64,000 nt of DNA from a virus (Duplodnaviria > Heunggongvirae > Uroviricota > Caudoviricetes). Below the pieces are notes generated by a model that saw only the letters and a program-made list of their open reading frames with translations, was not told the origin of the DNA and ran no database searches. The position numbers and the translations under genes are program-made. Shown here one piece after another: positions 5,879 to 55,805 of the stretch. Every line of letters starts with the position of its first letter. Positions within the stretch are counted from its first letter, which is position 1. The DNA lies in IMG/VR virus record IMGVR_UViG_3300014205_000201. One strand, 5' to 3'.

Positions 5879-5902
5879 CACCAATTAGGATTAAACTGGC
5901 GG
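5879..5902. promoter_or_regulatory. IR motif variant (caccaattaggattaaactggcgg); the leftmost copy noticed
   Basis: CACCAATT-N8-AACTGGCGG. Confidence 0.4.
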
Positions 5903-5914
5903 ATTTTTGTATTC

Positions 5915-6319
5915 TTAGTCTTTTATTTTATTGTGTTGTGGAAGATTTTTATACCCTTTATTTTCAGCGAAACACTTTTGGGTACAATAAATTTGCTTTT
6001 TGCTATTAGGTATGAACAATTTTTTACAATTTAGGCAAACTTTTGGTGCCCATAGTTCACCATTCTTTCGCTCTCGGATGTGATGTATTATAGAATTTTT
6101 TTTACGATAATATTTCATTGTTCGTTCAATCTCTTTTTGTGGATTATCTATGTATTGAAAATGGGCTGCTTCTAACCTTTCCTTCTGATGCTTAATGTAA
6201 GAGCGGTGTGCAATATCTTTGCTTCTTTCTAAGTTTGCATAGTAATATTGTTTGCCACGTTCTCGCTCTGCTTCTTTTTGTTTCTCTGTCATTTTGGCGT
6301 ATCTTTCTGCGGTTGGCAT
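5915..6319 (-). CDS. basic zinc-ribbon protein, possibly a degenerate HNH (HHIRERKNG ... CLNCKK ... CTQKC)
   Basis: Lys/Arg-rich; Cys pairs CLNC and CTQKC. Confidence 0.4.
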   Translation of the reverse strand: MPTAERYAKMTEKQKEAERERGKQYYYANLERSKDIAHRSYIKHQKERLEAAHFQYIDNPQKEIERTMKYYRKKNSIIHHIRERKNGELWAPKVCLNCKKLFIPNSKKQIYCTQKCFAENKGYKNLPQHNKIKD

Positions 6320-6582
6320 TATTTATTATCATCCATTTGACGTTTACATAGTATTATCTGAATAACACGAAATCCTAACTTAGATAATTCATAATAAACA
6401 ATGTCGCCCTTTTTTAAAGAGATTATCAATGTTCTAGCTTTTGCGCGTTTAAGCGTTTCATTTAGGATTTTATTATTATTTGTTGCGAAATATTTTTCTG
6501 ACAACGGCGTTTGGTATAACAAAAAAAGAAGGTCTGTATCTTCTTTTGTAAGCCTTTTACATATTTCTAATACTTTCGTCAT
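6319..6582 (-). CDS. hypothetical protein (87 aa)
   Basis: ATGA stop/start overlap with the upstream gene. Confidence 0.4.
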   Translation of the reverse strand: MTKVLEICKRLTKEDTDLLFLLYQTPLSEKYFATNNNKILNETLKRAKARTLIISLKKGDIVYYELSKLGFRVIQIILCKRQMDDNK

Positions 6583-6588
6583 TTTATA

Positions 6589-6879
6589 TCACTGATTACT
6601 CCTCATACGTTGACTCTCAGAATTATATTCTGGTGGCGCACGAGAGATATTAGGTACTCTTAAATTTACCATATACACACCTCTATGAGGAATAAAAATA
6701 TCAGTAGTATAACTCATCAACAAACTTGCAAACGATGTCATACCATATCTTGGCTCTTTATGAATTAAAAGATATATCTCTTTATTTTCTTTTAACACCA
6801 ATTCAAGTTGTTCTATCAAGGATAAATGATTATAGTAGAACTTTGTTTTAATATCTTTTTTTATTATAGCATCGTTCAA
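6589..6879 (-). CDS. hypothetical protein (96 aa)
   Basis: co-directional packing. Confidence 0.4.
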   Translation of the reverse strand: MNDAIIKKDIKTKFYYNHLSLIEQLELVLKENKEIYLLIHKEPRYGMTSFASLLMSYTTDIFIPHRGVYMVNLRVPNISRAPPEYNSESQRMRSNQ

Positions 6880-6898
6880 TATATGTCACCCATTTTTA

Positions 6899-7363
6899 TT
6901 ATCTATCCAAACTGTCAGTATTACTTTTTCCATAATACAATTTATTTAAGAAATCATTTATTTGGTTAAATGCATCATAGGCTTGGTGTACTCTTAGTTC
7001 ATCATACTTGGCAATTATTTTTTGAATGGCGAGTATTGATTTGTTATTAGAAATATTCAATCCAGATAACAAATTATCCATCATACTAACTGCTGAAGCA
7101 TATTGTCCTTTATCAAAACATTGTGAGATATTATTTACTTGTTCAGCAACACGCACAGGCCAAAGGCTATTTTTCATTGTATGCCCACCATTGAATGTGG
7201 CAAATGGATAAAGTTGGATAAATGAAATAAATCCATCCTTTTCACTTTTCAAAATCTGGCTTGTCGGAACAACTATGTAATCACTACTAAAATATTTAAC
7301 TAAATCTTCAATCACTGTTTTGTTTGAGCAAGTTATTTTTATTGTTAGTTTTTCACTTTGCAT
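6899..7363 (-). CDS. hypothetical protein (154 aa)
   Basis: co-directional packing. Confidence 0.45.
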   Translation of the reverse strand: MQSEKLTIKITCSNKTVIEDLVKYFSSDYIVVPTSQILKSEKDGFISFIQLYPFATFNGGHTMKNSLWPVRVAEQVNNISQCFDKGQYASAVSMMDNLLSGLNISNNKSILAIQKIIAKYDELRVHQAYDAFNQINDFLNKLYYGKSNTDSLDR

Positions 7364-7513
7364 TTATTTAATCACCTATTACTTTTAATGCACTATTACA
7401 TTTTCAATTGTTTTACTATCGTAATTATCCCAATCGTGCAATTCAATATGCAATCTGTAATGACTATACACCGTAAATCTGCGCCTACAGCGCTTACATT
7501 TATAAATCACTCA

Positions 7514-7735
7514 TTATTCACCTTTCGCGATAGTTATGTCCTTTGCAAAGGCAGCCTGTTCGCCTAGTTTATAATAGCAATATTCACGGTCTGTTGTTTT
7601 ATTATGGTTAGTCACCAAATCGCCCAGTATCTTTTCCAACATATGAAACATCTCATATGCTTTTGGTTGAGAGAAATCCAAGCAAGCAAATGCATTGGCA
7701 AGTTTTCTTATCTGATTATCTGTTAAGGTTTTCAC
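7514..7735 (-). CDS. hypothetical protein (73 aa)
   Basis: overlaps the next gene start by 4 nt. Confidence 0.4.
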   Translation of the reverse strand: MKTLTDNQIRKLANAFACLDFSQPKAYEMFHMLEKILGDLVTNHNKTTDREYCYYKLGEQAAFAKDITIAKGE

Positions 7736-8025
7736 TTTTCGACACCAGCTACATTAGATTGATTTTTATTTGGACTTAAATAGAAAACATATATGGAAGC
7801 TTCATTTGGATATTCACAGAACATTAATTCTTCTAATTGACTCCTGAGAGTACATAACGCTTTGTATGCTAACTCAGCCTTTTTTTCTCCTGCTTTTGCT
7901 CTCGAATATTTATTATGGTTTTCATTATGTATATCACACATTCTTGAAACTAACTTATCATTTAACTCATACAAGTTTAACCCAATTTTCTTATAGTAAT
8001 CCATTGTAAACTTTCCTTTTTGCAT
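7732..8025 (-). CDS. hypothetical protein (97 aa)
   Basis: SD AAGGGAG 8 nt upstream; IR motif just upstream. Confidence 0.5.
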   Translation of the reverse strand: MQKGKFTMDYYKKIGLNLYELNDKLVSRMCDIHNENHNKYSRAKAGEKKAELAYKALCTLRSQLEELMFCEYPNEASIYVFYLSPNKNQSNVAGVEK

Positions 8026-8027
8026 TG

Positions 8028-8336
8028 TTATGACTCCCTTTGTTTGTCACCAGTTACAGCCAAACTGTCAGTTGTTGGCATGTGATCAATGAGATACTGA
8101 AATTTCTTACCCTCGCCCATTCCATACTGATAACCAATAAGGAATATTGTGTGTTCGCATAAAGCGCTCGAAGTAAGCAGTATCTTTCCAAAGTTTTCAC
8201 CTATCTTGATCTTGTCATCGTTTTCTGAAGATACAATTTTGAAAAAAGTATTTTGTAGTAAATCAAGTTTTGCTTTATCTGAACAAGCGTTTTTCTTGTT
8301 GTTATTGGCACAGCATTGGTCACACATTTTATTCAC
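8028..8336 (-). CDS. Cys-rich hypothetical protein (102 aa; CDQCC...C)
   Basis: co-directional packing. Confidence 0.45.
   Translation of the reverse strand: MNKMCDQCCANNNKKNACSDKAKLDLLQNTFFKIVSSENDDKIKIGENFGKILLTSSALCEHTIFLIGYQYGMGEGKKFQYLIDHMPTTDSLAVTGDKQRES
8047..8071. promoter_or_regulatory. IR motif copy (tcaccagttacagccaaactgtcag)
   Basis: then SD AAGGGAG and the ATG at 8025 on the minus strand. Confidence 0.55.
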
Positions 8337-8353
8337 CAGAATCTCGATAATTG

Positions 8354-8809
8354 TCAGATAGTTTCTGGCGCAGTTAATCCTTTAGTGCAGAATCCTTTGA
8401 CTATTCCAGTTGTTGTGTCTATAAGAGTAATTTTACCGAACACGGGCATGTAAGGTTTAAGACTATTAATAAATTGGCAGTAGCTAGAGTAATCCTTGTG
8501 GATAGTAATTAAAGTATGAAAATCGATTGCTTTTGCGACCATGAGGACAGCAGCATTATTTAGAAGAAATGTTTTAGCGTCTGGCACATCAGCGCGTGTA
8601 TTGGATATTTCTATGAATGCCATAAGGGGCAATCCAAGTTTTGCGAAGTTAGGTACACATTGAAAATCAAGAAGGCCCTCCTGCTCTATCTTTTCTCTTA
8701 TTCTTGTTACGGTAGGTTGTGATACGCCAGCTATTTTTGCTACTTGACGGTCACTACCTCTTGGGCATTTCATAAATGCATTATATACTTTTTGTTTGTT
8801 TCCAATCAT
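8354..8809 (-). CDS. Lrp/AsnC-family transcription regulator (HTH + RAM-like C-term)
   Basis: RGSDRQVAKIAGVSQPTVTRIREKIEQEGLL HTH; 151 aa is typical size. Confidence 0.65.
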   Translation of the reverse strand: MIGNKQKVYNAFMKCPRGSDRQVAKIAGVSQPTVTRIREKIEQEGLLDFQCVPNFAKLGLPLMAFIEISNTRADVPDAKTFLLNNAAVLMVAKAIDFHTLITIHKDYSSYCQFINSLKPYMPVFGKITLIDTTTGIVKGFCTKGLTAPETI

Positions 8810-8880: not shown

Positions 8881-9183
8881 TTATCGTTTAAAGAAACGAC
8901 TCTTATTCAATATTAAATACGTAACGGCAAAGGTAGCTATCGAACAACAAATAACCGATTCAACACCAACCCAAAGACCACCAACAGCAACCGTTCTAAA
9001 ATCGCTAAGTGCCACCGTCATATTATACGCAGAACCAAACGCCTGGTTGGTAATATCGAATATTGCAGTTTCAGTATAGAGAACTATAGCAAGTTGACCA
9101 ATACCCCAACCGTAACCATTTATGATTAGCAGCAGTAAACAAACGGCAACTAAATTATTCTTTAACTTAGAGTTCATCATCAT
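8881..9183 (-). CDS. small membrane protein (100 aa)
   Basis: N-terminal TM; ATGA overlap with the upstream gene. Confidence 0.45.
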   Translation of the reverse strand: MMMNSKLKNNLVAVCLLLLIINGYGWGIGQLAIVLYTETAIFDITNQAFGSAYNMTVALSDFRTVAVGGLWVGVESVICCSIATFAVTYLILNKSRFFKR

Positions 9184-9419
9184 TCACCAGTTTTGTTGTA
9201 ACTGTCAATCTTTCTTTCATGCCACCAAATATAGAAGCCTAAACTAATAGAAATAATTACAGCGCCAAAAATTATGTAAGGCAAAATTGATATAAGATTT
9301 AGTGGCCCAGGGCAACCTTGCCAAGTAGTACAGCTATACTTAGCTGGATTAAAGAAGCGGTCTATCTCTTCCCACCAAGTTAAGTTTGCTAAATGCTGAT
9401 GCCAAGCTTCACTCAACAT
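9180..9419 (-). CDS. small membrane protein (79 aa)
   Basis: TM helix; Trp-rich. Confidence 0.45.
   Translation of the reverse strand: MLSEAWHQHLANLTWWEEIDRFFNPAKYSCTTWQGCPGPLNLISILPYIIFGAVIISISLGFYIWWHERKIDSYNKTGE
9184..9208. promoter_or_regulatory. IR motif copy (tcaccagttttgttgtaactgtcaa)
   Basis: abuts the start codon at 9183. Confidence 0.5.
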
Positions 9420-11123: not shown

Positions 11124-11399
11124 TTATTTTTCCTCTGTTTGTTTATCCGAAACCGATGGTGTTTTAAGAAGCCATAATCCTATACTCCCAAAGAACCCAA
11201 AAATGATCGGACCAAATACTAACAAGTTATGAATGTTCGTCATTGCTGTTTTGTATTCTGTCGGTGCATAGTCTGGTGCGGCTCCAAAGTTAGTTAAGTA
11301 AAGGGCGGTAAATAATACCGCTAATATCCAAGCTATTATCGTAGTAATTTTTATGGCTGTATGTTCTTCTCGTATTTTTGGTATGTTTAAAGTTTTCAT
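11124..11399 (-). CDS. small membrane protein; start taken at the internal Met (MKTLNIP). The track ORF extends to 11441.
   Basis: SD GGAGA and an IR motif precede the 11399 ATG; C-term SVSDKQTEEK. Confidence 0.45.
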   Translation of the reverse strand: MKTLNIPKIREEHTAIKITTIIAWILAVLFTALYLTNFGAAPDYAPTEYKTAMTNIHNLLVFGPIIFGFFGSIGLWLLKTPSVSDKQTEEK

Positions 11400-11749
11400 T
11401 ATCGTTTTGTCTCCATTTGTTCGTCGCCAGAATGGGTACAATTGTCAATTGTTTTTTTGCTAACTTCCTTACGAAAAGCCAACAAACAATAACATGCAAA
11501 GAAGCCCAACAAGAATGGTCGAGAAACAACATTCGTCATCAATACTAATAACCACACATTTGCCGGTTGAGTAACCGAAACAGGAGTTGTAGGAAAAGTA
11601 AAATAAGCATACAACCCAAATGCAGAGGGTATACTTATAATAACAATAGTAAAGACAAACATTCCAAGCCAAATATATTTCATATACGGTTGGATCTTTG
11701 CAAAGTTATTATCTTGCCATGCGCTTAACCGATTTTTAGAGACAGCCAT
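11399..11749 (-). CDS. small membrane protein (116 aa)
   Basis: 3 TM. Confidence 0.45.
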   Translation of the reverse strand: MAVSKNRLSAWQDNNFAKIQPYMKYIWLGMFVFTIVIISIPSAFGLYAYFTFPTTPVSVTQPANVWLLVLMTNVVSRPFLLGFFACYCLLAFRKEVSKKTIDNCTHSGDEQMETKR

Positions 11750-12235: not shown

Positions 12236-12720
12236 TATTTTTCTTCCTCTTTATTACTGACTTTTGGGACACATTTGGCAGTTGATGTTACCCAAAGCTT
12301 ATTCTTGTTTTTATTCTTCATGAACTTTTCACGCATCGTAACAACAGCCTTCATATCTCGATGGATCTTAGCCCAAGACTCGTTATGGCATGCAGACGAA
12401 TTTGAACCGCTAATGTCATAATTCTTCTCATCACTAAAGCAATAGATAGAATGTTTACCCTCTGTTTCAGCCCAATGCAATGTTGCATCGCAGAACCATA
12501 TATCCCACTCAGGAAAAGTGTGGGCTTTATAATAATCTTTGAAAGGCATATTAACGAATACTTTACCACAGGTTTTGCAGAACACTAAATAGTGTTTACC
12601 CTCCATGGCTTGCTCAATTAGTTTTTCCATCTCAGGTTGCTTATTGCTAAGAATGAAAGCAGCCATCTCGTTTTGGTTAGCTCGTTTTAAGTCTGTGATT
12701 AGTTTATCTTTTGCGCTCAT
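12235..12720 (-). CDS. hypothetical protein with CxxC (161 aa)
   Basis: SD cctcc(rc) at 12731-12735 and an IR motif upstream. Confidence 0.5.
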   Translation of the reverse strand: MSAKDKLITDLKRANQNEMAAFILSNKQPEMEKLIEQAMEGKHYLVFCKTCGKVFVNMPFKDYYKAHTFPEWDIWFCDATLHWAETEGKHSIYCFSDEKNYDISGSNSSACHNESWAKIHRDMKAVVTMREKFMKNKNKNKLWVTSTAKCVPKVSNKEEEK

Positions 12721-12739
12721 TGTTTCTTTTCCTCCACAC

Positions 12740-12764
12740 TACCAGATGGATACAAACTGTCAAA
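12740..12764. promoter_or_regulatory. IR motif copy (taccagatggatacaaactgtcaaa)
   Basis: SD at 12731-12735, then the start at 12720. Confidence 0.5.
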
Positions 12765-12784
12765 TATTAAAAATGCTAAAATCA

Positions 12785-13033: not shown

Positions 13034-13347
13034 TCTTTTTTATCCTCCATACATACACTGCCAGATGTTGTGGAACTGGTGTCGTGAATGTTACTATATC
13101 TTCTATCGATGTCAGCTAATATCCAACCATATGTTTTATCAATATCACACATATTCAACGCGAAAGCTACAGTGATGCATAGGAGAGTTATAGCCAACCC
13201 AATAAAGATCAAAGTAGGTGGTGGTAGTATAACTATCGTTGGAATACTACATATCGATAATAGCCATCGGATGTTTCTACGCTTATCTAACTTTTTGGTA
13301 AGCGGATCATACAGATTGTGATATTCTTTTAATATCGTTTCAGTCAT
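13030..13347 (-). CDS. small membrane protein (105 aa)
   Basis: 2 TM. Confidence 0.45.
   Translation of the reverse strand: MTETILKEYHNLYDPLTKKLDKRRNIRWLLSICSIPTIVILPPPTLIFIGLAITLLCITVAFALNMCDIDKTYGWILADIDRRYSNIHDTSSTTSGSVCMEDKKE
13058..13084. promoter_or_regulatory. IR motif copy (ctgccagatgttgtggaactggtgtcg)
   Basis: SD at 13044-13048, then the start at 13033. Confidence 0.5.
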
Positions 13348-13729: not shown

Positions 13730-14280
13730 TATTGTTTATCCTCCTTGCCAGTTAGCAGTATTGTTGGCACAGATTTTTTATACCATTTATAATGATTTGT
13801 TGAATGAGAAAATTTAGTACCATCCCAAATTGGTAAACGATAATATTTCCAGAATTGCTGTTTTTCTTGAGCCATCTCAAACAGAGCATAAAGTTCTTTT
13901 CTTCTCTGCTTTATATTTAAGTTATTAAGAACATGATTCGATTCTAAAAGATTAACCCATTCAAGATATATTTCAGCTATTTCCTTTTTCTGAATAAGAT
14001 AAGGAATAATATTAGGTAATATTATCTTTGCTTCATTTGAACGGAAACGTAGATAGTAAGTAAGAACTTTTCCGACTTCATGTTGCTCCTGTATCTTTCC
14101 CAACTTTAAAAGATATTGTAGGTCAAGCAAATTTTGTAGGTTCATATTTGAAATATTAAATTGACTCTCGCCACTTAAACGGTCTGTTCCGTTTATCTTG
14201 CGTTTACGTTGAGAGATATTAATACAACCCTCGCCATCAACAAAGCCAGCTAGATAAGCCCACACTGTTTCTGGTATCAT
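13729..14280 (-). CDS. free-standing LAGLIDADG homing-endonuclease-like protein (paralog of 9413-10051)
   Basis: WAYLAGFVDGEGCINIS; IILPNIIPYLIQKKE. Confidence 0.65.
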   Translation of the reverse strand: MIPETVWAYLAGFVDGEGCINISQRKRKINGTDRLSGESQFNISNMNLQNLLDLQYLLKLGKIQEQHEVGKVLTYYLRFRSNEAKIILPNIIPYLIQKKEIAEIYLEWVNLLESNHVLNNLNIKQRRKELYALFEMAQEKQQFWKYYRLPIWDGTKFSHSTNHYKWYKKSVPTILLTGKEDKQ

Positions 14281-14998: not shown

Positions 14999-15462
14999 TG
15001 TGGTTTTCCCTCACCAGTTGGTGTAATTCTGTCAGTTGATGGAAATAGAGAATTGAATTGATCCTTCACTAATTCAAGTAACCCCTGGGCATGTTCGATA
15101 TTATACATCCCATCATCATTGAGCCATTTACGAAATGCCTCAACTTTATTGTCAGCCAGTTTGGGTTTCTCAAGATGATACTGCTTACTAAAGCGGTTTA
15201 CTATTTCATAACCATCTGCAAGCATCGCATCTAGATTAGGTTGCGCTCCTGTTGTTGTTAACTCATAAATGAAAACATTGCTAACTTGTTTAGGTGGAGT
15301 AACGGTAACTGGTTCGATAAACTCAGTGTATTCTTTTGATTGACAAAATGGGCAAACATAACTCTCTAATGTTGTTTCGCCTACTGCAAGACCTGAGCGA
15401 ATTTGTTTAGCTGTATGAACAAAGGTTTTCTTACATTCGTTATTTAGGCATTGATACTTCAT
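14995..15462 (-). CDS. zinc-ribbon protein (CLNNEC...CPFC), 155 aa
   Basis: two CxxC pairs; IR motif upstream. Confidence 0.5.
   Translation of the reverse strand: MKYQCLNNECKKTFVHTAKQIRSGLAVGETTLESYVCPFCQSKEYTEFIEPVTVTPPKQVSNVFIYELTTTGAQPNLDAMLADGYEIVNRFSKQYHLEKPKLADNKVEAFRKWLNDDGMYNIEHAQGLLELVKDQFNSLFPSTDRITPTGEGKPQ
15011..15036. promoter_or_regulatory. IR motif copy (tcaccagttggtgtaattctgtcagt)
   Basis: 13 nt upstream of the start at 14998. Confidence 0.55.
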
Positions 15463-15752
15463 TTCACTATCTCCTTAGCTTTATCACCAGTAAGTTCTGA
15501 ACTGTCGGTTACTACACCGTTTGAAGCAAAAACAGGATTATTCCTCTGAGAATAACCTACGATAGTAAAGATTATCCCAGCAAAGAGAAATATGCAGCCA
15601 CCGAGAAAAGATAGGTTCCCAATGTTCTGGAACCCGCTGCTAACTTGAGGATAGTCTAATGCTACCTGGAACGTTGCGAAGCTAGCGCCGAAAAGAAGCA
15701 AGCTACCAATCACCATTACGATTCCGCCAATCATTATATTATTTGTTTTCAT
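15459..15752 (-). CDS. small membrane protein (97 aa)
   Basis: 2 TM; SD GGAGG + IR motif. Confidence 0.45.
   Translation of the reverse strand: MKTNNIMIGGIVMVIGSLLLFGASFATFQVALDYPQVSSGFQNIGNLSFLGGCIFLFAGIIFTIVGYSQRNNPVFASNGVVTDSSELTGDKAKEIVK
15484..15508. promoter_or_regulatory. IR motif copy (tcaccagtaagttctgaactgtcgg)
   Basis: 22 nt upstream of the start at 15462. Confidence 0.5.
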
Positions 15753-16186
15753 TACTTTTGTTCCTCCACAGTTTTATTGCCAGTTGACAATGAAGTGGTG
15801 GCAGCATCTTTCTTTTCTTGTGCTAATGCATAAAGCTGCTTAGCGGCAGCAAAACAAGCTAATACCTGAACACCAGATAAATTAGCGTTATAACGTTTAT
15901 TAGGAACTACTCTGGCATCAGATGGACATGCTTGTTTAGCAACAGCCCATAAAAGATTCGCGGGCTTGGTTGGATCATGAATAACTGTGGTCTTATGAAT
16001 CTTCTCATTTAATCTATCCTCAACTTTCTTGTTTAAAGCCTTAAGATTCTTTTTAGGCAATTTTAGGAGTGCATCTACTTCTGGATTGCGAAGCTGTAAT
16101 CGCTTAACTAATGGGGCGATGATGTCTAGTTTTTCTTGTTGTTCGGCTTTAGATTGTTCACGGATAACTTCAAGGGCTTCAGTCAT
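15752..16186 (-). CDS. hypothetical protein (144 aa)
   Basis: co-directional packing. Confidence 0.45.
   Translation of the reverse strand: MTEALEVIREQSKAEQQEKLDIIAPLVKRLQLRNPEVDALLKLPKKNLKALNKKVEDRLNEKIHKTTVIHDPTKPANLLWAVAKQACPSDARVVPNKRYNANLSGVQVLACFAAAKQLYALAQEKKDAATTSLSTGNKTVEEQK
15778..15801. promoter_or_regulatory. IR motif variant (tgccagttgacaatgaagtggtgg)
   Basis: then SD GGAGG and the start at 15752. Confidence 0.45.
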
Positions 16187-19595: not shown

Positions 19596-19822
19596 TACCA
19601 TGTATAAGGAATACCGCTTTCCAATCCAAGACGAAACGAAAGCGCGGCGAAAACAAGAAGAACTCCAAAAAACCTACGGTGTAAAGATCCCCGCCTATAA
19701 GATTCAGACGGCTAGTGGCGACCAGTGGTTCTCGCTGGTGTATCCAGAGGGATTGCAACCAAAGGTTAAAAAACGTTGATTCACCAGTTTATTCTGATTT
19801 GTCAGTGCATGGAGAAATATAT

Positions 19823-24106: not shown

Positions 24107-24132
24107 AGGCTTAATGGGGTGTTTCCAACAAC

Positions 24133-37850: not shown

Positions 37851-37879
37851 CGTCAGTTAGTGTGAAACTGGTGAATTTA
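37851..37879. promoter_or_regulatory. IR motif copy (cgtcagttagtgtgaaactggtgaattt)
   Basis: CAGTT-N8-AACTGGTGA. Confidence 0.5.
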
Positions 37880-38029: not shown

Positions 38030-38437
38030 TTATGTCACCGGTTTGTTAGGAACTGGTGAATAATCAGTACAGTTAGCGCAGCAATCATGCTCAGCCATAT
38101 ACAACCCTTTGTTGCACTCTATCCATGTGCTTAATCCCTCATCTTCTTCTCGTTTGATCCTGTGTATGCAATCTCTTTTTACTGATGGAAAGAACTCTGG
38201 GTGTGTTTTAGCCCATGTGCCAAACCATTTTTCATACCATTCATAAGCAGCTTTGCCATCAACAATTATTTCGCCGTCTGTAGCAAAACTTACTGGAAAC
38301 TCTTGCTCTGCCATATCAAGTACACACCAAAGACCGGCAGTGTTAACAGATAAAGAGTGTATTTGGCCGTCATTTTCACAGCTATCTTCATGTTGTTTCC
38401 TAATATCTTTGTATAGTTTACCATCATTTTGTCGCAT
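38030..38437 (-). CDS. hypothetical protein (135 aa)
   Basis: SD GGAGG + IR motif upstream. Confidence 0.5.
   Translation of the reverse strand: MRQNDGKLYKDIRKQHEDSCENDGQIHSLSVNTAGLWCVLDMAEQEFPVSFATDGEIIVDGKAAYEWYEKWFGTWAKTHPEFFPSVKRDCIHRIKREEDEGLSTWIECNKGLYMAEHDCCANCTDYSPVPNKPVT
38035..38060. promoter_or_regulatory. IR motif copy (tcaccggtttgttaggaactggtgaa)
   Basis: CACCGGTT-N7-AACTGGTGA. Confidence 0.5.
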
Positions 38438-38439
38438 TA

Positions 38440-38694
38440 TTATTTTCCTCCATGAGTTGCCAGTTCATTGGGAACTGGTGGATAACTTAGGTTAGATCGT
38501 TCTTTTCCCTGTTCTTCAGAATAGATATTTACGTAACCTTCATCAAAGACAGCTAGTATGTAGGTTGCTTGCGATTCCGTTATGGCTTTGTTCATGTTTT
38601 CATTTAAGAGTTTTATTAGGGCTTCTCTTGATTTGTCTGCAAATTCTTTGGTGCTGAATGCCCGTATTACTCCTGCGTTAAAGGTCATTGCCAT
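38440..38694 (-). CDS. hypothetical protein (84 aa)
   Basis: its C-terminal codons contain an IR motif. Confidence 0.45.
   Translation of the reverse strand: MAMTFNAGVIRAFSTKEFADKSREALIKLLNENMNKAITESQATYILAVFDEGYVNIYSEEQGKERSNLSYPPVPNELATHGGK
38458..38481. promoter_or_regulatory. IR motif copy, near-perfect palindrome (ttgccagttcattgggaactggtgg)
   Basis: CCAGTT-N7-AACTGG. Confidence 0.55.
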
Positions 38695-41476: not shown

Positions 41477-41869
41477 CTATTTTACACCATTCTCTGACAC
41501 TTTGCCGTTAACTGTCGGTTTAGGATTTTCAATACCTGCCATAATTCTGAGGCATTCATTAGGATCATCTCTAACTGAACAATCATCTATGTCGCAAAGT
41601 TTACACCGCATTTTAGCTAAACTATATCTGAATAATCTGGAGAGCACATCCTCGTTCCAAAGCATATCCAAGAATGTTTCTACATCGTTAAGTTGAATTC
41701 TGAGTCGATGTAGTTCTTCGCTGTTCTCAAAGTAATCGACTTCCATAGCTTCGCATTCTTTTGGAATGCGCCAACTGCTGAGCATCGCGTCTCTTGAGGT
41801 TAGGGCTAAGACTTCTGGTTTGTCGCCTTTTACTGTAACAACAAATTTCTTTTCATAAGGGTAAGTCAT
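41477..41869 (-). CDS. hypothetical protein (130 aa)
   Basis: co-directional packing. Confidence 0.45.
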   Translation of the reverse strand: MTYPYEKKFVVTVKGDKPEVLALTSRDAMLSSWRIPKECEAMEVDYFENSEELHRLRIQLNDVETFLDMLWNEDVLSRLFRYSLAKMRCKLCDIDDCSVRDDPNECLRIMAGIENPKPTVNGKVSENGVK

Positions 41870-42253: not shown

Positions 42254-42574
42254 TCATTTTTTGTCTTCTCCATGCGCCGTCAGTTTACCGATAACTGGTG
42301 GTGCCTTCGCTTTTGTTTCGAGTTTATACAATTCTACTTTAAATGGTGCTAGCTCCTTTTTTGTCCGTAGTTTTCTAAGTATTGTTTGTGCCTGTACTTG
42401 TTTGAATACTTTAGCTTCGTTTTGGAAACAGAATGCTATATTGTTGCGGTAACAACTTAATCCCTTATGGCCGCCTTTGTTAGCTAACTCTTCAGTGGCA
42501 TAACCATAACAAAGAGTATATCCCTTTTTTAATAATTCAATAATTTCTTTTACTTGTTCTTCAACAGTTCTCAA
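42254..42574 (-). CDS. hypothetical protein (106 aa)
   Basis: IR motif upstream. Confidence 0.45.
   Translation of the reverse strand: MRTVEEQVKEIIELLKKGYTLCYGYATEELANKGGHKGLSCYRNNIAFCFQNEAKVFKQVQAQTILRKLRTKKELAPFKVELYKLETKAKAPPVIGKLTAHGEDKK
42278..42302. promoter_or_regulatory. IR motif copy (ccgtcagtttaccgataactggtggtg)
   Basis: CAGTT-N8-AACTGGTG. Confidence 0.5.
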
Positions 42575-42772
42575 TTAAGAATCCTCCTTCTTTTGTTCAC
42601 CATTTATTGACTGTTTATTATCTATAGTCGGTTTGACTCGGAGGCAGCTTACGCAGTTATGCCATTCAACACCGTTGCGTACCTCTGGGGTTTTAGCGGG
42701 ATCTCGGACGTAGGGGCGGCATTGGCCTAAGCCAACATTCTTTTTGAAAGGACAAACAAGCGGCTCACTCAT
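42575..42772 (-). CDS. Cys-rich protein (65 aa)
   Basis: co-directional packing. Confidence 0.4.
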   Translation of the reverse strand: MSEPLVCPFKKNVGLGQCRPYVRDPAKTPEVRNGVEWHNCVSCLRVKPTIDNKQSINGEQKKEDS

Positions 42773-46575: not shown

Positions 46576-46656
46576 TGTTTACCCTCCACTGTTGGATTAG
46601 TTTCTTTTAACATTTTATTCCCGCCACTTCTACCACAACTGGTAGGGCATGGAGAG

Positions 46657-46975: not shown

Positions 46976-47389
46976 TTAGTTCTCTCCGACTTTTTTGCCG
47001 TAACTATCAGATTGTAACCCAATGTTTAATCCTGGCGCAAACTCTAAAGGTACATCCGTGTTACACCATGAACCTGTGCTGTATGAGTATGGGTAAGGAT
47101 TTCTTTCAGCTTCTACTTTTTGAAAGTGCCATACGAAGAGGTGCGTTTTGCCGTTTGCGTAAACGTCTAAAAAGTCATTTGCCATATGGAAGTGATTAAA
47201 CTTCTTTAGGTCTTCTACTTTCATGCACCAGCAATCCGCTAGCTCAGCATAACCTATTACTTTACCTTCGCATCCAATGGCGATCTTGCCACGGATAAAG
47301 GTTTTTTGTCGCCGGATTTCCCAGACTTTTAATCTTAAAACTATTTTGCTAGCCCACGGCTCTTTTACTTTAAGGCACTTCATTATCAT
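46976..47389 (-). CDS. ASCH-like domain protein (137 aa)
   Basis: LKVKEPWASKIVLRLKVWEIRRQ. Confidence 0.4.
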   Translation of the reverse strand: MIMKCLKVKEPWASKIVLRLKVWEIRRQKTFIRGKIAIGCEGKVIGYAELADCWCMKVEDLKKFNHFHMANDFLDVYANGKTHLFVWHFQKVEAERNPYPYSYSTGSWCNTDVPLEFAPGLNIGLQSDSYGKKVGEN

Positions 47390-47733
47390 TCACCGCCAGA
47401 TTTTGTTAAACCATCAGCGACTGCTCTATCCCCCCATTTTAATGGGACATCAGATTCATCGATGTATCTTTCATAATATGGATTAAGCGCCCACCAGTAA
47501 ACCTTCTTGCGAATATCATGAGGCACAATCGACCTACCTATAGTAGATAAAGCCAAATTAGATAGCCAAAGACCGAACCCATGAATGCTTGTTTCAGGAT
47601 GACGCAAAGCTACTTCGCTTAAGCGTTCACCCGTAAGAACCAAATCTTGAAGCACCTTTGGAAAAACACCTTCACGTTTACTTGAGGCAATAAGAAGCTG
47701 CATTAGTTCCTCATCGGTCAATAGTTTTCTCAT
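47386..47733 (-). CDS. hypothetical protein (115 aa)
   Basis: ATGA overlap. Confidence 0.45.
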   Translation of the reverse strand: MRKLLTDEELMQLLIASSKREGVFPKVLQDLVLTGERLSEVALRHPETSIHGFGLWLSNLALSTIGRSIVPHDIRKKVYWWALNPYYERYIDESDVPLKWGDRAVADGLTKSGGE

Positions 47734-48032: not shown

Positions 48033-48280
48033 TGTATTTTCTCCTTACCAGATGAGCACAAACTGGTGTCTGATGTAGCCGGTTGCCAGTTACTCCAGTT
48101 ACCTCTGGTAAAAACACATGATACACATGGTTCTTGATCTAACGGTGCAAAGTAACCGTTGCAGGAATCACAATCTTTTTCAGTCATGCTTTCGCCCCTA
48201 CTGGTTTTTGACAACGAGGGCATTTCTTTGGGTTGGGATTTCTTGCTAACCACTCGTAGCCACAAGAACATGTTTTCCAT
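48029..48280 (-). CDS. Cys-rich protein (83 aa; CDSCNGY...CVSC)
   Basis: IR motif copies at 48046 and 48083. Confidence 0.4.
   Translation of the reverse strand: MENMFLWLRVVSKKSQPKEMPSLSKTSRGESMTEKDCDSCNGYFAPLDQEPCVSCVFTRGNWSNWQPATSDTSLCSSGKEKIQ
48046..48070. promoter_or_regulatory. IR motif copy (taccagatgagcacaaactggtgtc)
   Basis: CCAGAT-N8-AACTGGTG. Confidence 0.45.
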
Positions 48281-48737
48281 CTCTCTTTAATTGAACCTGT
48301 TACCATTTTAAATCACATTACATCACTAAGTAAGGTATTTGAATATAAGCTTTGGGGTAATATGGTTGCCGCAAGTTAACCATGAACTGTCATTCAAAAT
48401 AGGAGAAGGTTGTGGCAAACGTGTAGCTTGCCACCGCAAGAACCGCAACACATACAAGGGATCTCCGACTGGTAGCTTCGCCAACCCAAGGCAATAATCA
48501 AGTCAGCGCTAAATATATAAATAATTTTCGGTACATGATAAAACTTAAATGCAATAACAACCCATGAATAGTTATGGCTGAGTCGGCAAATTACATAATG
48601 TGTTGCCCATGGAAATCTTGGGCAGGCGTTTTAGCTTCCTATTTTCAGATTCTCTTTTTTAGGAAGTTTTTCAGCCCATGAAGTATATAGAGCACATACT
48701 CATACACCTGTATGCGCTTGCAGTTTGCCGCTCAGCC

Positions 48738-50714: not shown

Positions 50715-50741
50715 TACTGACAGTTGAAAAAGAAGTGTCAC
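50715..50741. promoter_or_regulatory. IR motif variant (actgacagttgaaaaagaagtgtcacc) in the divergent region
   Basis: CTGACAGTT half-site. Confidence 0.4.
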
Positions 50742-50814
50742 CGCATGGATGGCAAAGCTTTTAAGCTGTAACCGCTGAATATTGTATAATCTCGGAAGAG
50801 AGAGGATTGAAAGA

Positions 50815-52013: not shown

Positions 52014-52032
52014 CCCCTCTTTTTATTTTTAC

Positions 52033-52056
52033 TGCCAGTTCCAGACAAACTGGCGG
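52033..52056. promoter_or_regulatory. IR motif copy (tgccagttccagacaaactggcgg)
   Basis: CCAGTT-N7-AACTGG. Confidence 0.55.
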
Positions 52057-52257
52057 CTAGCAGTAATCGTAGGGATTACCCATCTCTATAACCTTATGCA
52101 AATACTCAAAATGTTTCCTGTGATCAACCTCATTTATCGCAGTGGCATTACATGGTGCTGGCTTACGGACACCAGCATTCAAATGAGCATCCAAATCATG
52201 CTGAGAAAAGAAAAAGACATCTTTACAATACGGGCAGCGATAAATCGTGCCAGTCAC
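52057..52257 (-). CDS. C2H2-like zinc-finger mini-protein (66 aa)
   Basis: YRCPYCKDVFFFSQHDLDAHLNA (C-x2-C ... H-x4-H). Confidence 0.45.
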   Translation of the reverse strand: MTGTIYRCPYCKDVFFFSQHDLDAHLNAGVRKPAPCNATAINEVDHRKHFEYLHKVIEMGNPYDYC

Positions 52258-54141: not shown

Positions 54142-54305
54142 TTTTTTAGTTCCACTTTTTGTTTAGCGTAATAGAATATTGGCCAAGCGATAATTGAGAG
54201 AACAGCCATAAACGGAATACAAAGTAAAGTAACGGCGGCAACTATTTGTTTTAACAGTAAACATTTAATCAACAAGATAGCGATCTCCCGTGGGGCAATA
54301 AACAA
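54111..54305 (-). CDS. small membrane protein (64 aa)
   Basis: TM helices. Confidence 0.35.
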   Translation of the reverse strand: MFIAPREIAILLIKCLLLKQIVAAVTLLCIPFMAVLSIIAWPIFYYAKQKVELKKCAQEESILN

Positions 54306-54383
54306 ATTCCCCTTTGCCTACTTGCGCGAAACGTTTTTTATAATCCCACATTTGACCGCAACCTTCGCAACATTTGCTTAACA

Positions 54384-54581
54384 TCAATAGCGCCTCGTTC
54401 GTTTAGATTCAAAAGTACAACTAGCCACATACTTACATTTACCGCAAGTTTCATGAATCTTCTTACAATATTCACCGAGGGCTTGCTTAAAATAGAAACA
54501 ACCAGAAAAATCGCGGCTAGCACAATTCATCTTAGTTAAACCATTACAATTATTAATTATAGAACAAACATTCTGAGTCAT
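54384..54581 (-). CDS. Cys-rich mini-protein (65 aa, about 10 Cys)
   Basis: CxxC-rich. Confidence 0.4.
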   Translation of the reverse strand: MTQNVCSIINNCNGLTKMNCASRDFSGCFYFKQALGEYCKKIHETCGKCKYVASCTFESKRTRRY

Positions 54582-54732
54582 AATTCTATTCCTCTAGCGC
54601 GTTCTTTAGCTTTAAATGTCCCACAATAAGTTCCTCCCATATGGTTGCAAGTGTAGCTTGTTTTAGAATACGCTTTACATGTAACTTTGTATATACATGA
54701 TTCACGCATATAATTCATACAGCCACCATCCA

Positions 54733-54975
54733 TTATGATATCCCATCCTTGTTCTTCTTCAAAGATTCATTTTCAACTCGTAAAGCTGTAACTTCTTTGC
54801 CAAGCTTTCCGTTTTCTTTAAGTAAAAGCTGGTTAGCATCAAGCACTTCTTTTAATTTTGAATTAGCCAACACCAAAGGAACCATCATTGTGTTACCACT
54901 AAAACCAGCAGCGCCTACACTGCGGATATCAGAAACTTTAACAGCTAAATTTTCAATACCTAACATATTATTCAA
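54733..54975 (-). CDS. hypothetical coiled-coil protein (80 aa)
   Basis: co-directional packing. Confidence 0.4.
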   Translation of the reverse strand: MNNMLGIENLAVKVSDIRSVGAAGFSGNTMMVPLVLANSKLKEVLDANQLLLKENGKLGKEVTALRVENESLKKNKDGIS

Positions 54976-55089
54976 CTCTCAATCTTGGACATCCAATACA
55001 TTCAGAATCAGCTATACCACTTTTGAAAAAACAAGCCTCTGGGTCAGCACAGATAAAACGACGGTTTTGTTTGATATCTTGAGATGTCA

Positions 55090-55299
55090 TTATGGTTTTC
55101 CTCCAGCAGCCCAAGCTGACAACTTAGCACAGCCATTTACATCACAGGGTTTTTCAGTTAAGCTTTTAGAGCAAACCATACATGGAACTTCAGCTAACAC
55201 ATCATCCAAATTGGGTAATTCAGTTTGAACATTTTTATATACTATTTTTGGGTAATTATCAATTAATGATTTCTGCGTATAATTAAACCTCCACTCCAT
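55090..55299 (-). CDS. Cys-containing mini-protein (69 aa)
   Basis: CMVC...C. Confidence 0.4.
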   Translation of the reverse strand: MEWRFNYTQKSLIDNYPKIVYKNVQTELPNLDDVLAEVPCMVCSKSLTEKPCDVNGCAKLSAWAAGGKP

Positions 55300-55574
55300 T
55301 TACTTTTATTACCTCAAATGTTATTTCATCACCACCCTTCAGAGATAGCAAATCAGTAACATATTTTGGGTATTGCATTCTTTTTCTTGAATCAATTTTA
55401 ATTGTAAATATATGTTTCTTAGGGTTTGTTTCGGTCATCCAAGTTACCTCTCGCTCACCCCATATTACCCCAAGTAGTATAAAAGATTTGTCATAAGTTA
55501 CTGCACTATGACTACCACAACATATTATATACTACCTATCATAAACCGAGTTAACGATAAAGAAGTGTTTTAAA

Positions 55575-55766
55575 ATGCAAGCAGAATCATATATATACAA
55601 AGGGCAAACAGCCCACCTATTCTGGTTAGCACAAAAACTAGCAACCCCAACAATCACAGAACAAGAAGCAACCGAAATAATAGAGGCCGTAAGAAAAACT
55701 AACCCAACAAGAGCCGACCAACTAATAGAGTTTAGAAACAAAAAATTGGAAGCTAGACACACCTAG
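55575..55766 (+). CDS. hypothetical protein (63 aa)
   Basis: the only plus-strand ORF in this segment. Confidence 0.4.
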   Translation: MQAESYIYKGQTAHLFWLAQKLATPTITEQEATEIIEAVRKTNPTRADQLIEFRNKKLEARHT

Positions 55767-55778
55767 CTTTCTCCATGC

Positions 55779-55805
55779 ACCGACAGTTACGATGAAACTG
55801 TCAAC
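55779..55805. promoter_or_regulatory. IR motif copy (caccgacagttacgatgaaactgtcaac); the rightmost copy noticed
   Basis: GACAGTT-N8-AACTGTCA. Confidence 0.5.

Follow-up and report, generated by a model that had tools for sequence, protein, structure and literature searches.

An imperfect palindrome recurs just upstream of start codons across a 64,000-nucleotide stretch of viral DNA (the window), which raises the question of what an element repeated in this way does. The first-pass annotation proposed three roles, namely an operator for an element-encoded dimeric regulator, a promoter class and an intercistronic RNA hairpin; the first is favoured here, the second is possible but weakened and the third is not upheld. 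The motif had also been taken to mark an element inside host DNA. Instead, the whole window is part of one new, virus-like replicon of ~87 kb. The replicon is probably archaeal, a host that we infer. The motif, present in ~40 copies in the small-gene half, marks the non-structural (early or accessory) half of this replicon and not a host island. No RNA polymerase gene was seen in the ~80 of 87 kb examined, in keeping with the general dependence of archaeal viruses on the host enzyme (PMC5569661).

Copy number, spacing and symmetry

In an untrained test, CAGTTN7AACTG with at most one mismatch gave 25 matches; the mean over 100 dinucleotide shuffles was 2.80 ± 1.69, with no shuffle above 8. The same arms with other gaps gave just 2-4. 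A symmetrised 29-column PWM identified 41 sites at ≥15 bits (shuffles, 0.31) and 31 sites at ≥18 bits (shuffles, 0.02). The region 5.8-55.9 kb holds 38 PWM sites, where ~0.3 are expected. The enrichment is real and strong, and the original estimate of about 30 or more copies is borne out. When the gap between half-site PWMs was varied, gap 7 yielded 39 sites and gaps 4, 5, 6, 8, 9 and 10 yielded 0, 2, 0, 0, 0 and 0, respectively; the spacer, first described as 7-9, is exactly 7. Two arms of ~9 bp each flank a fixed 7-bp spacer, and the spacers of all sites differ (information ~0).

The core of the motif was described correctly, but the site is larger than noted. Counted over both sides, 26 of 82 flanks have ATG at column 30 (~1.5 expected); this outer ATG(G) box extends the site to ~39 bp with two-fold symmetry (CCAT-n5-YYRM-CAGTT-N7-AACTG-KYRR-n3-ATGG). 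The four boxes are centred at ~-17.5, -6, +6 and +17.5 and therefore all lie on one helix face. The symmetry holds on both strands and includes the non-pairing flanks. ATG at column 30 is commoner on the gene-proximal side (13/30) than on the gene-distal side (7/30), and the ATGG box doubles there as SD (GGAG); its conservation may therefore be partly translational. The half-sites vary independently: mirror positions show no covariation, and deviations in one arm are uncompensated in the other.

From the 34 coordinates originally listed, 26 sites were recovered at ≥15 bits with N7. The copy at 13745 is a gap-5 variant (17.1 bits), those at 9423 and 40469 are weak or half-sites, and those at 14312, 16599, 28767, 36390 and 48083 are not supported in the half-site PWM scan. 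About 12 sites had been missed (11133, 12255, 19779, 25131, 25675, 32157, 32522, 37701, 42605, 46619, 46984 and 47391).

Placement relative to genes

The site centre lies 12-50 nt upstream of a called start in 30 of 38 sites (79%), compared with 12.7% of random positions (maximum 31.6% in 1000 trials), so the reported bias toward start codons holds. The distance from the end of the 25-mer to the start codon is 3-32 nt. The embedding of the motif within the final codons of the preceding gene was likewise confirmed, in 19 of the 30 start-proximal sites; two different reading frames are used, which indicates selection on DNA and not on peptide. Some sites fall at 4-nt gene overlaps, at apparently co-transcribed, translationally coupled junctions.

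Intergenic sites have an A/T-rich, TATA-like tract abutting the upstream edge, with a perfect A/T 8-mer in 6/15 vs 6.8% of random windows. No such tract was found at ORF-embedded sites, and those copies therefore cannot be classical promoter-operators. A strong site is present at each of the two convergent junctions of the region (52030 and 37701). Gene 51627-52013(+) ends in a hairpin and T-run, and site 52030, the best of all, is directly 3' of these; a JGI-called gene, 52254-52451(-), faces this site. The motif delimits the region only roughly, as sites also occur right of 55.8 kb, at 62304 and, with 26 bits, ~5.6 kb past the right end of the window (L103:4099). Three hammerhead ribozymes are present in 5' leaders.

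Table 1. Palindrome sites and candidate binding proteins in the window (PWM bits per site; strand "." for all sites)
Feature	Position	Strand	Bits	Context
Site	5876..5904	.	21.6	intergenic, upstream of 5694-5870(-)
Site	8045..8073	.	24.7	embedded in 3' codons of ORF 8028-8327(-), upstream of 7732-8025(-)
Weak site	8331..8359	.	14.6-15.2	upstream of 8028-8327(-)
Lrp/AsnC-like protein, 151 aa, candidate binder	8354..8809	-		profile matches below family thresholds
Site	9182..9210	.	20.1	embedded in ORF 9180-9419(-); ATG of 8881-9180(-) 3 nt past 25-mer, without SD
Site	11133..11161	.	16.1	embedded, upstream of 10822-11121(-)
Site	11422..11450	.	18.2	embedded, upstream of 11124-11399(-)
Site	12255..12283	.	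15.1	embedded, upstream of 11993-12235(-)
Site	12737..12765	.	21.6	intergenic, AT tract abutting, upstream of 12235-12720(-)
Site	13056..13084	.	22.8	embedded, upstream of 12785-13033(-)
Gap-5 variant	13743..13769	.	17.1	upstream of 13352-13729(-)
Site	15009..15037	.	18.6	embedded, upstream of 14723-14998(-)
Site	15482..15510	.	21.3	embedded, upstream of 14995-15462(-)
Site	15775..15803	.	21.1	embedded, upstream of 15459-15752(-)
Site	19779..19807	.	20.5	intergenic, then CATGGAG, upstream of 19823-19942(+)
Site	24130..24158	.	28.6	non-coding origin-like region, after Rep-like gene
Site	25131..25159	.	21.2	intergenic, then AATGGAG, upstream of 25176-25670(+)
Site	25675..25703	.	16.9	intergenic, upstream of small ORF 25711-25803(+)
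Site	25803..25831	.	21.4	TATA-like tract abutting; heads 195-nt leader of 26012-26344(+)
Site	26865..26893	.	22.5	heads 148-nt leader of 27027-27875(+)
Site	27890..27918	.	21.2	intergenic, upstream of 27931-28095(+)
Site	28335..28363	.	18.7	intergenic, upstream of 28368-28583(+); ATG 6 nt past 25-mer, without SD
Site	28583..28611	.	17.5	intergenic, ATGG box both sides, upstream of 28629-28766(+)
Site	31259..31287	.	18.7	intergenic, upstream of RNA ligase gene 31307-32188(+)
Site	32157..32185	.	19.0	embedded in RNA ligase 3' codons, upstream of 32200-32562(+)
Site	32522..32550	.	19.2	embedded, upstream of 32559-32903(+)
Site	37701..37729	.	22.8	convergent intergenic, + block end (37686) to - block end (37740)
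Site	37848..37876	.	23.5	partly embedded, then TATGGAG, upstream of 37740-37838(-)
Site	38033..38061	.	20.5	embedded, upstream of 37857-38027(-); ATG 7 nt past 25-mer, without SD
Site	38455..38483	.	25.0	embedded, then CATGGAGG, upstream of 38030-38437(-)
Site	41492..41520	.	23.3	embedded, upstream of 40872-41474(-)
Site	42275..42303	.	25.6	embedded, then CATGGAG, upstream of 42090-42257(-)
Site	42605..42633	.	15.3	embedded, upstream of 42254-42574(-)
Site	46619..46647	.	21.2	intergenic, 58 nt before 46135-46575(-); CATGGAG box gene-distal
Site	46984..47012	.	16.9	embedded, upstream of 46657-46974(-)
Site	47391..47419	.	22.4	embedded, upstream of 46976-47383(-)
Site	48043..48071	.	18.0	embedded, upstream of 47733-48032(-)
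Weak site	48367..48395	.	15.8	110 nt before 48029-48271(-)
Site	50715..50743	.	20.1	divergent intergenic, TATAAAAAATA abutting, then CATGGA; precedes 50815-51318(+)
Best site	52030..52058	.	29.5	convergent intergenic
AbrB-like mini-protein, 51 aa, candidate binder	55283..55438	-		TIGR01439 match
Site	55778..55806	.	25.1	then CATGGAG, upstream of 55532-55762(-); last in small-gene region
Site	62304..62332	.	18.3	junction of genes 62283-62930(-) and 61481-62257(-); CATGGAG on + side

A proposed operator array and the alternatives to it

The reading given about an even chance is that the ~40 copies form an operator array for one putative element-encoded, oligomeric, sequence-specific DNA-binding protein that would act by repression or silencing. 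The regulator would occupy its double-stranded DNA site as a dimer or dimer of dimers, as the symmetric, independent half-sites, the strict spacing and the lack of selection for a hairpin suggest. That a protein binds, which protein it may be and the sign of regulation are all points that we infer from the sequence. At intergenic copies, the site directly downstream of the TATA-like tract would cover the start of the host polymerase, and the bound protein may block initiation; at embedded copies and the two convergent gene ends, it may form a roadblock to read-through. In that case a single regulator could keep the entire non-structural (early or accessory) genome half off or on, so that many genes would be switched at once. 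The mycobacteriophage stoperators and ESAS are analogues of such an array, which is a member of neither group.

A virus-specific promoter class, in which an element-encoded factor on the palindrome would bring in the host polymerase, is rather unlikely. Transcription would start near the right edge of the site, at the Y-R step of columns 24-25 or at the A of cATGGAG, and the mRNAs would be leaderless or have an SD near the 5' end. The short, fixed distance from site to SD or start codon (GGAG starts at column 32 or 36) agrees with this, as do several leaderless-looking genes with ATG 3-9 nt past the site and no SD, and the position of site 52030 after a terminator-like hairpin and T-run. The 5' ends produced by hammerheads HH-2 and HH-3 likewise fall immediately ahead of AUGGAG-type leaders, a hint that SDs close to the 5' end are important in the element. 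Promoter-linked, virus-specific repeats are also known in archaeal viruses, including the HF1/HF2 intergenic repeats and the SIRV GTC motif (PMC7230728, PMC5569661). However, a two-fold symmetric element has no direction, TATA/BRE is absent at the distance expected for a column-30 start, embedded sites lack any A/T tract, the two strong convergent-end sites have no gene to drive, and other sites occupy the apparently co-transcribed 4-nt overlaps. At site 25803, HH-1 begins at column 27; the RNA therefore starts at or before the right arm, and a column-30 start is excluded there.

Control at the RNA level, by an intercistronic hairpin or a protein-bound RNA operator near the ribosome-binding site that governs processing or translation, is improbable. 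In its favour, the motif immediately precedes the SD and start codon, hammerhead RNA cleavage occurs just upstream of SDs elsewhere in the element, and folding of the 25-nt cores is slightly stronger than that of shuffled sequence (mean z = -1.0). Nevertheless, the share of paired cells is 72.5%, no higher than the 72.8 ± 1.4 of shuffles (308/500 shuffles at or above the observed value), an intact 5-bp stem is present in just ~8/38 sites, and the mean MFE is -3.75 kcal/mol, with half of the sites weaker than -3. The independent arms and weak hairpins thus do not support an RNA hairpin. The both-strand symmetry reaching into non-pairing flanks and the presence of sites in convergent and non-coding contexts also argue against it, and cleavage at embedded sites would strip the stop codon of the upstream cistron. 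Core sites for tyrosine recombinases, serving as cassette boundaries for shuffling or in resolution or integration, are quite improbable, even though inverted ~9-bp arms around a fixed 7-bp crossover spacer fit that architecture. The element encodes two small members of the integrase family, at 22198-22947 (Phage_integrase, E = 7e-8) and at 49272-50171. The window shares with L039 and L037 the combination of the 249-aa recombinase, Rep and the palindrome just downstream, which L040 lacks, and relatives differ greatly in gene content beyond the Rep module. Against this reading, strand exchange between sites whose spacers all differ is not expected of most tyrosine recombinases, a cut in the spacer of the embedded sites would fall within an upstream ORF and not between whole genes, the sites follow start codons rather than gene ends generally, and independent assemblies are 100% identical without rearrangements. 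Some type I and type IIB restriction-modification targets are bipartite palindromes with a fixed spacer. The motif resembles these, and its strongest conserved copy sits in the origin-like region; another DNA signal of this kind (a methylation- or restriction-related target, a nucleoid-protein or partition site, or replication iterons) is the least probable reading. Restriction targets are usually avoided, not accumulated, by viruses, the tight link to start codons is unexpected for partition, packaging or replication sites, and the origin-like region already has its own separate repeats, GGGGTACT.

Candidate regulators and distribution among relatives

Three candidates for the binding protein of the putative operator array were named in the first-pass annotation. 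The Lrp/AsnC-like protein matches HTH_24 (E = 0.0024, below cut-off), LrpC 2cfx (E = 0.0074) and NCBIfam Lrp (E = 0.0047), and its low-confidence AF2 model has the element order HTH then beta-alpha-beta-beta-alpha-beta. The AbrB-like mini-protein matches TIGR01439 (E = 3.7e-4, 20.1 bits vs a cut-off of 28.3) and has no Pfam matches. Every candidate in the binder search scores below family thresholds, and the Lrp-like and AbrB-like proteins are thus weakly supported; no support was obtained for the 24314 mini-protein as regulator.

The motif is restricted to the replicon and its nearest sisters. Bathyarchaeia DNA totalling 213 kb has no sites, and three occur in the 313 kb scanned from other loci. 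The motif system is absent from relatives with 60-78% identical Rep or RNA ligase. Cross-genome support consists of three sites in two short contigs (14.7 kb) of the closest sister elements, L039 and L037, and includes the origin-region site at 24130, whose position is conserved in both.

Sequence and architecture of the palindrome

An imperfect palindrome with the core CAGTT-N7-AACTG, present in about 40 copies that are named here by their start coordinates, is a real, lineage-specific regulatory DNA motif, and the statistical evidence for it is overwhelming. An untrained pattern allowing at most one mismatch in the core gave 25 matches, compared with 2.80 ± 1.69 (maximum 8) in dinucleotide-preserving shuffles, which bears out the recurrence noticed in the first-pass annotation. 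The same arms at gaps of 4-11 gave 2-4 matches per gap. An iterated, symmetrised weight matrix of 29 columns and about 18 bits detected 41 sites of at least 15 bits in the window (0.31 in shuffles) and 31 of at least 18 bits (0.02 in shuffles). Because this matrix was trained on the very window that it scanned, a control was added in which the half-site matrices were fixed and the gap alone was varied. Gap 7 yielded 39 sites, whereas gaps 4, 5, 6, 8, 9 and 10 yielded 0, 2, 0, 0, 0 and 0, respectively. The spacer, earlier described as 7-9 bp, is fixed at exactly 7. Of the 34 coordinates originally listed, 26 were recovered, 13745 is a gap-5 variant, 9423 and 40469 are weak, and 14312, 16599, 28767, 36390 and 48083 are half-sites or nothing; about a dozen further sites had been overlooked.

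The logo, oriented by the downstream gene and numbered by column, reads A(-3)..A(0)-a-Y-Y-R-M-C-A-G-T-T-N7-A-A-C-T-G-K-Y-R-R-n-G-n-A-T-G-(G-A-G), with the half-site YYRM-CAGTT. The spacer columns carry about 0 bits and every spacer is different. An outer ATG(G) box lies exactly at column 30: of the 82 outward flanks, 26 have ATG at that position, where about 1.5 would be expected, and 17 have ATGG. The core itself has no orientation; the outer box alone is commoner on the gene-proximal side (13/30) than on the gene-distal side (7/30). Since the box occurs at column 30 on both sides, the complete site is a palindrome of about 39 bp with four boxes that follow one another at roughly one helical turn (centres near -17.5, -6, +6 and +17.5). 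The gene-side box is frequently (C)ATGGAG, the GGAG of which starts at column 32 or 36 and doubles as the Shine-Dalgarno (SD) sequence. In several genes the ATG follows the site by 3-9 nt without an SD sequence, and the initiation module AUGGAG(A)-N~10-AUG is also found ahead of genes that have no palindrome.

Mirror positions of the two arms vary independently, Watson-Crick pairing being equal to the column-composition prediction at every degenerate position. In the pair-count analysis, 72.5% of cells were paired, compared with 72.8 ± 1.4 in shuffles (308 of 500 shuffles reached or exceeded the observed value). No excess of covariation between the arms was detected (score 0.197 vs 0.208 in shuffles), and no compensatory changes were found in the other arm for departures of one arm from the consensus. 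Only about 8 of 38 sites have an intact 5-bp stem. Folded as RNA, the 25-nt cores average an MFE of -3.75 kcal/mol, with values weaker than -3 at half of the sites. These results do not support a hairpin selected in RNA or DNA (REP-like, PeSL-like or a processing stem-loop), there being neither maintained pairing nor a stable stem, and the intercistronic RNA hairpin proposed earlier as one possible role is likewise not supported. Independent mirror positions and uncompensated arm departures are, at the level of sequence, the signature of a DNA site for a symmetric oligomer and not of a selected hairpin; its two equivalent half-sites would be read on duplex DNA.

Position of the sites relative to genes

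Gene calls were made by a simple ORF and SD heuristic and were compared with JGI gene calls where possible. In the region of 5.8-55.9 kb, 30 of 38 sites (79%) are centred 12-50 nt ahead of a start codon. For random positions the figure is 12.7% (maximum 31.6% in 1000 trials), which confirms the bias toward start codons claimed at first sight. The 25-bp core ends 3-32 nt ahead of the start codon, and about a quarter of the genes have a site. The small-gene 50 kb contains 38 sites, whereas the large-gene modules have 4 over about 30 kb.

Nineteen of the 30 start-proximal sites lie entirely within the last codons of the upstream ORF, at junctions where the neighbouring genes overlap by 1-4 nt or stand 0-2 nt apart. 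These embedded sites are translated in two different frames, which argues that the DNA and not the peptide is conserved. Nine sites lie between genes, where the gaps measure 37-117 nt. Site 24130 lies within the non-coding origin-like region, sites 25803 and 26865 lie in long 5' leaders, and site 50715 lies in a divergent intergenic region about 85 nt before 50815-51318(+). Sites 46619 (58 nt) and 48367 (110 nt) are farther upstream of a start than the others. Strong sites also occupy the two junctions in the region at which gene ends converge (37701 and 52030), and 52030 is the best-scoring site of all.

About 19 ORFs, for example 8028-8327, 15459-15752, 38440-38694 and 42254-42574 (all on the minus strand), share similar hydrophilic C-terminal tails, such as ...TGDKQRES, ...LTGDKAKEIVK, ...THGGK and ...HGEDKK. 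Such tails read as the translation of the palindrome together with the purine-rich SD sequence of the next gene, so that the ends of these proteins appear to be dictated by regulatory DNA. A motif written into the tails of upstream proteins shows regulatory DNA shaping coding sequence in very compact genomes.

Candidate roles and known systems

Archaeal viruses are thought to depend on the host polymerase with TBP and TFB (PMC5569661). At 6-8 of the 15 intergenic sites the upstream edge borders directly on an A/T-rich, TATA-like tract, and a perfect A/T 8-mer is present at 6 of the 15, compared with 6.8% of random windows; among sites embedded wholly or in part, no enrichment was seen (0 of 20 tested). 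With a TATA box centred near column -4, transcription would be expected to begin about 26 nt farther on, within the right arm (Y-R step of columns 24-25). At site 25803, column 27 is where the predicted hammerhead ribozyme HH-1 begins, so RNA must start there at or before column 27 and not at the column-30 ATG. One "TATA box" first read at 29.35 kb proved to be the stem III loop of the hammerhead HH-3, and the remaining TATA-like calls therefore need caution. Bacterial signals were also considered and set aside, with weak excesses only for sigma-70 promoters (70 vs 55 ± 7) and intrinsic terminators (27 vs 17 ± 5).

Taken together, the TATA-like tracts, the limit set by HH-1 and the convergent sites without a gene to drive favour an array of operators, and a multi-copy operator is the most likely role of the motif. 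A bound oligomer would block initiation at the intergenic promoters and would act as a roadblock at the ORF-embedded and convergent copies; this dual action has about an even chance of being correct. The main rival is a virus-specific promoter or activator site, which is rather unlikely: sites 37701 and 52030 have nothing to transcribe, and a promoter with its start at column 30 conflicts with the earlier start required by HH-1. Control by the motif at the RNA level is very improbable in view of the independent mirror positions, the lack of excess covariation and the weak folds. The architecture, inverted arms around an N7 spacer, also fits a tyrosine-recombinase core site (6-8 bp type), and the element encodes a protein matching Phage_integrase (22198-22947), but the spacers all differ and offer no common crossover sequence, and the 19 of 30 sites that lie within ORFs argue against cassette borders, which leaves this reading a slimmer probability still. 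As to rearrangements at the sites, the independent assemblies are 100% identical, and the sister elements compared are short contigs. The smallest probability of all is given to other DNA signals.

The element-encoded regulator suggested in the first-pass annotation agrees with the favoured operator reading, but the proteins that could serve as binders fall below family thresholds. The candidates are an Lrp-like protein (8354-8809), two AbrB-like mini-proteins (17154-17309 and 55283-55438) and several RHH- or wHTH-looking mini-proteins (RHH-like 44241-44399; wHTH-like 6319-6582 and 53815-54141), none of which reached a family threshold. The 249-aa recombinase (22198-22947) also counts as a possible binder. 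No Pfam matches were obtained for the RHH-like, AbrB-like and other mini-proteins; Pfam queries in which about 50 small proteins were concatenated were unreliable, a known RNA ligase match being lost. AlphaFold models from single sequences were too poor for a fold search (pLDDT 52.5 for the Lrp-like protein and 33.7 for a 392-aa protein). Co-occurrence was discarded as a route to the binder, as the relatives have only the Rep module in common.

The stoperators of Cluster A mycobacteriophages (L5 gp71-type) comprise more than 20 repressor sites distributed genome-wide at promoters and short intergenic junctions, and silence many transcription units at both initiation and elongation (PMC9283540). 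The motif is like them in copy number and gene-junction placement (38 sites within 50 kb, of which 79% closely precede starts), and by analogy may work as they do, as many copies of one repressor site. Stoperators, however, are asymmetric 13-mers bound by a monomer, function in one orientation only, lie in intergenic gaps and occur in a mycobacterial host, whereas the site here is two-fold symmetric, 25-39 bp long with a strict 7-bp spacer, is mostly found inside the upstream ORF and probably has an archaeal host. No family of the gp71 repressor type was detected in those proteins that were searched with Pfam, PHROGs and NCBIfam.

The closest formal match, a palindrome plus (C)ATGGAG, is the SAS/ESAS system of Cluster K, in which an SD-containing box just before starts is immediately preceded by imperfect inverted repeats; it is confined to the non-structural genome half and its function is still not known (PMC3203893, PMC12699233). 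A restriction of this kind is seen here too. The SAS is a 13-bp GGGATAGGAGCCC located 3-8 bp before starts (PMC3203893), whereas the box here is (C)ATGGAG(A); the SAS box is asymmetric, and the outer ATGG box here is itself symmetric. ESAS have 17-bp arms and a variable spacer of 4-13 bp, compared with arms of about 9 bp and a spacer fixed at 7, and their host belongs to another domain than the probable archaeal host here. Given these differences in symmetry, arm length, spacer, sequence and host domain, the motif is judged to belong to neither stoperators nor SAS/ESAS.

Palindromic or virus-specific elements between the TATA box and the start control the host polymerase at promoters of viruses or of cells, an example being the GTC element of SIRV1/2 (PMC5569661). 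The intergenic copies here share the geometry of such start-overlapping operators, which occur singly or in few copies, whereas about 40 are present here, most of them in coding sequence and without a recognisable TATA box. Archaeal operators of this type include those of NrpR and LrpA. The intergenic repeats of the haloviruses HF1/HF2 occupy strategic positions relative to transcripts and have promoter activity (PMC7230728). They resemble the motif as repeated elements at strategic transcript positions in an archaeal virus, but are long, A/T-rich, few and strictly intergenic, whereas the sites here are short GC-containing palindromes embedded in ORFs. To our knowledge no equivalent exists in archaeal viruses, the SIRV GTC element and the HF1/HF2 repeats being the nearest. 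What is known of transcription control in archaeal viruses comes from a handful of factors, each studied at single promoters.

By analogy, a virus-encoded tetramer or dimer of dimers might bind the four-box palindrome of about 39 bp at about 40 gene junctions, and might thereby silence the host TBP/TFB-dependent polymerase at initiation and elongation or position TATA-independent initiation; such stoperator-like, genome-wide control in an archaeal virus is offered tentatively. We know of no such genome-wide system described for archaea or their viruses. With one site recurring about 40 times at gene starts, an archaeal virus-like element would for the first time show signs of a logic that silences or activates genes across the whole genome, and the sites are ready handles for mapping transcription units in metatranscriptomes.

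The replicon, its relatives and its putative hammerhead ribozymes

The window is 100% identical to independently assembled contigs from several samples (Ga0378408_0000526, 87,133 bp, and ERZ27247358 k141_2474516, 87,147 bp). These identical contigs of about 87 kb suggest that it belongs to a replicon that is complete and not to an island within the chromosome of a host, which counts against the idea that the motif delimits an element within host DNA. The 50 kb that bear the motif are densely packed with very small genes; stop-codon recoding was rejected as the cause, since no reassignment lengthens the ORFs sensibly. The other ~37 kb, almost devoid of sites, encode large Thr/Ser-rich repeat, PKD and beta-helix proteins, glycosyltransferases and radical-SAM enzymes. 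No RNA polymerase was seen in the ~87-kb replicon (about 80 kb examined), and no recognisable capsid, portal or terminase was seen among its genes. The replicon, in which hallmark genes are nearly lacking, may represent a new kind of archaeal virus or plasmid. The features located are listed in the table.

Features of the replicon and their coordinates in the window
Feature	Coordinates	Strand	Remarks
NUMOD3/Vsr endonuclease	3687-4640	-	just outside the motif region; second copy beyond the window (L004:16733-17686)
LAGLIDADG-like ORF	9413-10036	-	resembles 13729-14280 by sequence only
Homing endonuclease LAGLIDADG	13729-14280	-	Pfam match
Integrase-family gene, 249-aa tyrosine recombinase	22198-22947		Phage_integrase match
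Rep-like DnaA-like ATPase	22953-23966		337 aa; no Pfam domain; next to origin-like region
Origin-like region	23967-24660		~700 bp, non-coding, just after the Rep-like gene
HH-1	25830-25895	+	complete hammerhead architecture in 5' leader
HH-2	25944-26000	+	complete hammerhead architecture in 5' leader
HH-3	29316-29376	+	complete hammerhead architecture in 5' leader
tRNA-Asp(GTC), weak	33891-33964	+	ARAGORN; Rfam 31 bits, gathering score 29
Second candidate recombinase	49272-50171		LRH motif by eye; no match in Pfam, PHROGs, NCBIfam
Band-7 protein, RNA ligase, prepilin-peptidase-like protein			motif-bearing 50 kb
CxxC mini-proteins, many			motif-bearing 50 kb

The 249-aa recombinase matches the conserved R, H-x-x-R and Y motifs by eye, and these are its putative catalytic residues. 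HNH-type proteins with repeated basic R-x-Y-Y motifs, read by eye and without a family match, may also occur. The tRNA-Asp, which lies inside the predicted ORF 33687-34019, may be either a true tRNA of the virus or a tRNA fragment of the attP type that serves one of the integrases.

No similarity to known phages was found by megablast or with a 783-aa protein. The sole phage-database match of the RNA ligase is to a Methanofastidiosa virus (38%). The only homologue of the 783-aa protein lies on a chromosomal contig with GatD/GatE and Elp3, where GatD shares as much as 94% identity with Bathyarchaeia MAGs. This Bathyarchaeia-like context and the RNA-ligase match make an archaeal host likely, possibly one of the Bathyarchaeia, with which the element is probably linked. 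We know of no cultured virus of Bathyarchaeia.

The Rep-like family has at least 76 homologues (41-79% identity), carried by contigs from numerous metagenomes that reach 56 kb in length, and in the closest relatives a 128-aa protein and the 249-aa tyrosine recombinase are encoded upstream of Rep. Outside this module the relatives have almost no genes in common, and it appears to be an uncharacterised replication module common to otherwise unrelated elements. The adjoining region 23967-24660 contains an A/T-rich tract (24012-24045), at least four GGGGTACT repeats and an 8-bp inverted repeat (TTGTTAAA-N6-TTTAACAA) that is kept in the sister elements, and is probably the replication origin. The repeats of this region differ among relatives, being of the TAAGACA type in the closest sisters (L039 and L037) and in L040. 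No Rep homologue was found in GTDB genomes.

Downstream of rep, a site is retained at the corresponding position in the two sister elements that are closest (Rep identities of 79% and 73%), with other arm variants and another spacer and the same nATGGA offset; together these two elements have 3 sites of at least 15 bits in 14.7 kb. A relative with 60% Rep identity has 12-13-bit matches only, two of them directly ahead of an ATG. One site was found in 140 kb of distant Rep relatives, two in 131 kb of random viral loci, none in 43 kb of RNA-ligase relatives (68-78% identity) and none in 213 kb of Bathyarchaeia chromosomal DNA. A pattern scan of IMG/VR returned no relatives and 12 single chance matches, and a de novo search of the relatives for other spaced-palindrome systems gave nothing above shuffles. 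The near-absence of sites elsewhere indicates a lineage-specific motif that has been greatly amplified in one element; the spread through unrelated DNA that would have spoken against the earlier observation is clearly not seen.

All three hammerheads share the C(U/C)GAUGA core, the stem II hairpin, the GAA, an A-U-closed stem III, H17 and stem I. A U4C variant, HH-1 has GUC as its cleavage site. Predicted cleavage is 16 nt before the start at 26012 in HH-2, the stem I 3' strand of which appears to be the SD sequence UGGAG, and 24 nt before the start at 29396 in HH-3. An explicit hammerhead search gave these 3 matches, compared with 0.03 (loose) and 0.000 (strict) in shuffles, and the same search found none in 590 kb of other loci. 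Rfam gave sub-threshold matches only (Hammerhead_3, 27.9 bits, E = 0.011; Hammerhead_II, 17.6 bits). The possible trimming of mRNA leaders by ribozymes in a virus that is probably archaeal may merit its own study. The starts at 24672, 26012 and 27027 have a common initiation block, AAAC/AUGGAGAC(U)AAAC-N-AUG (24649-24680, 25997-26020 and 27004-27035), and these three blocks end leaders of 148-540 nt that are headed by sites 24130, 25803 and 26865.
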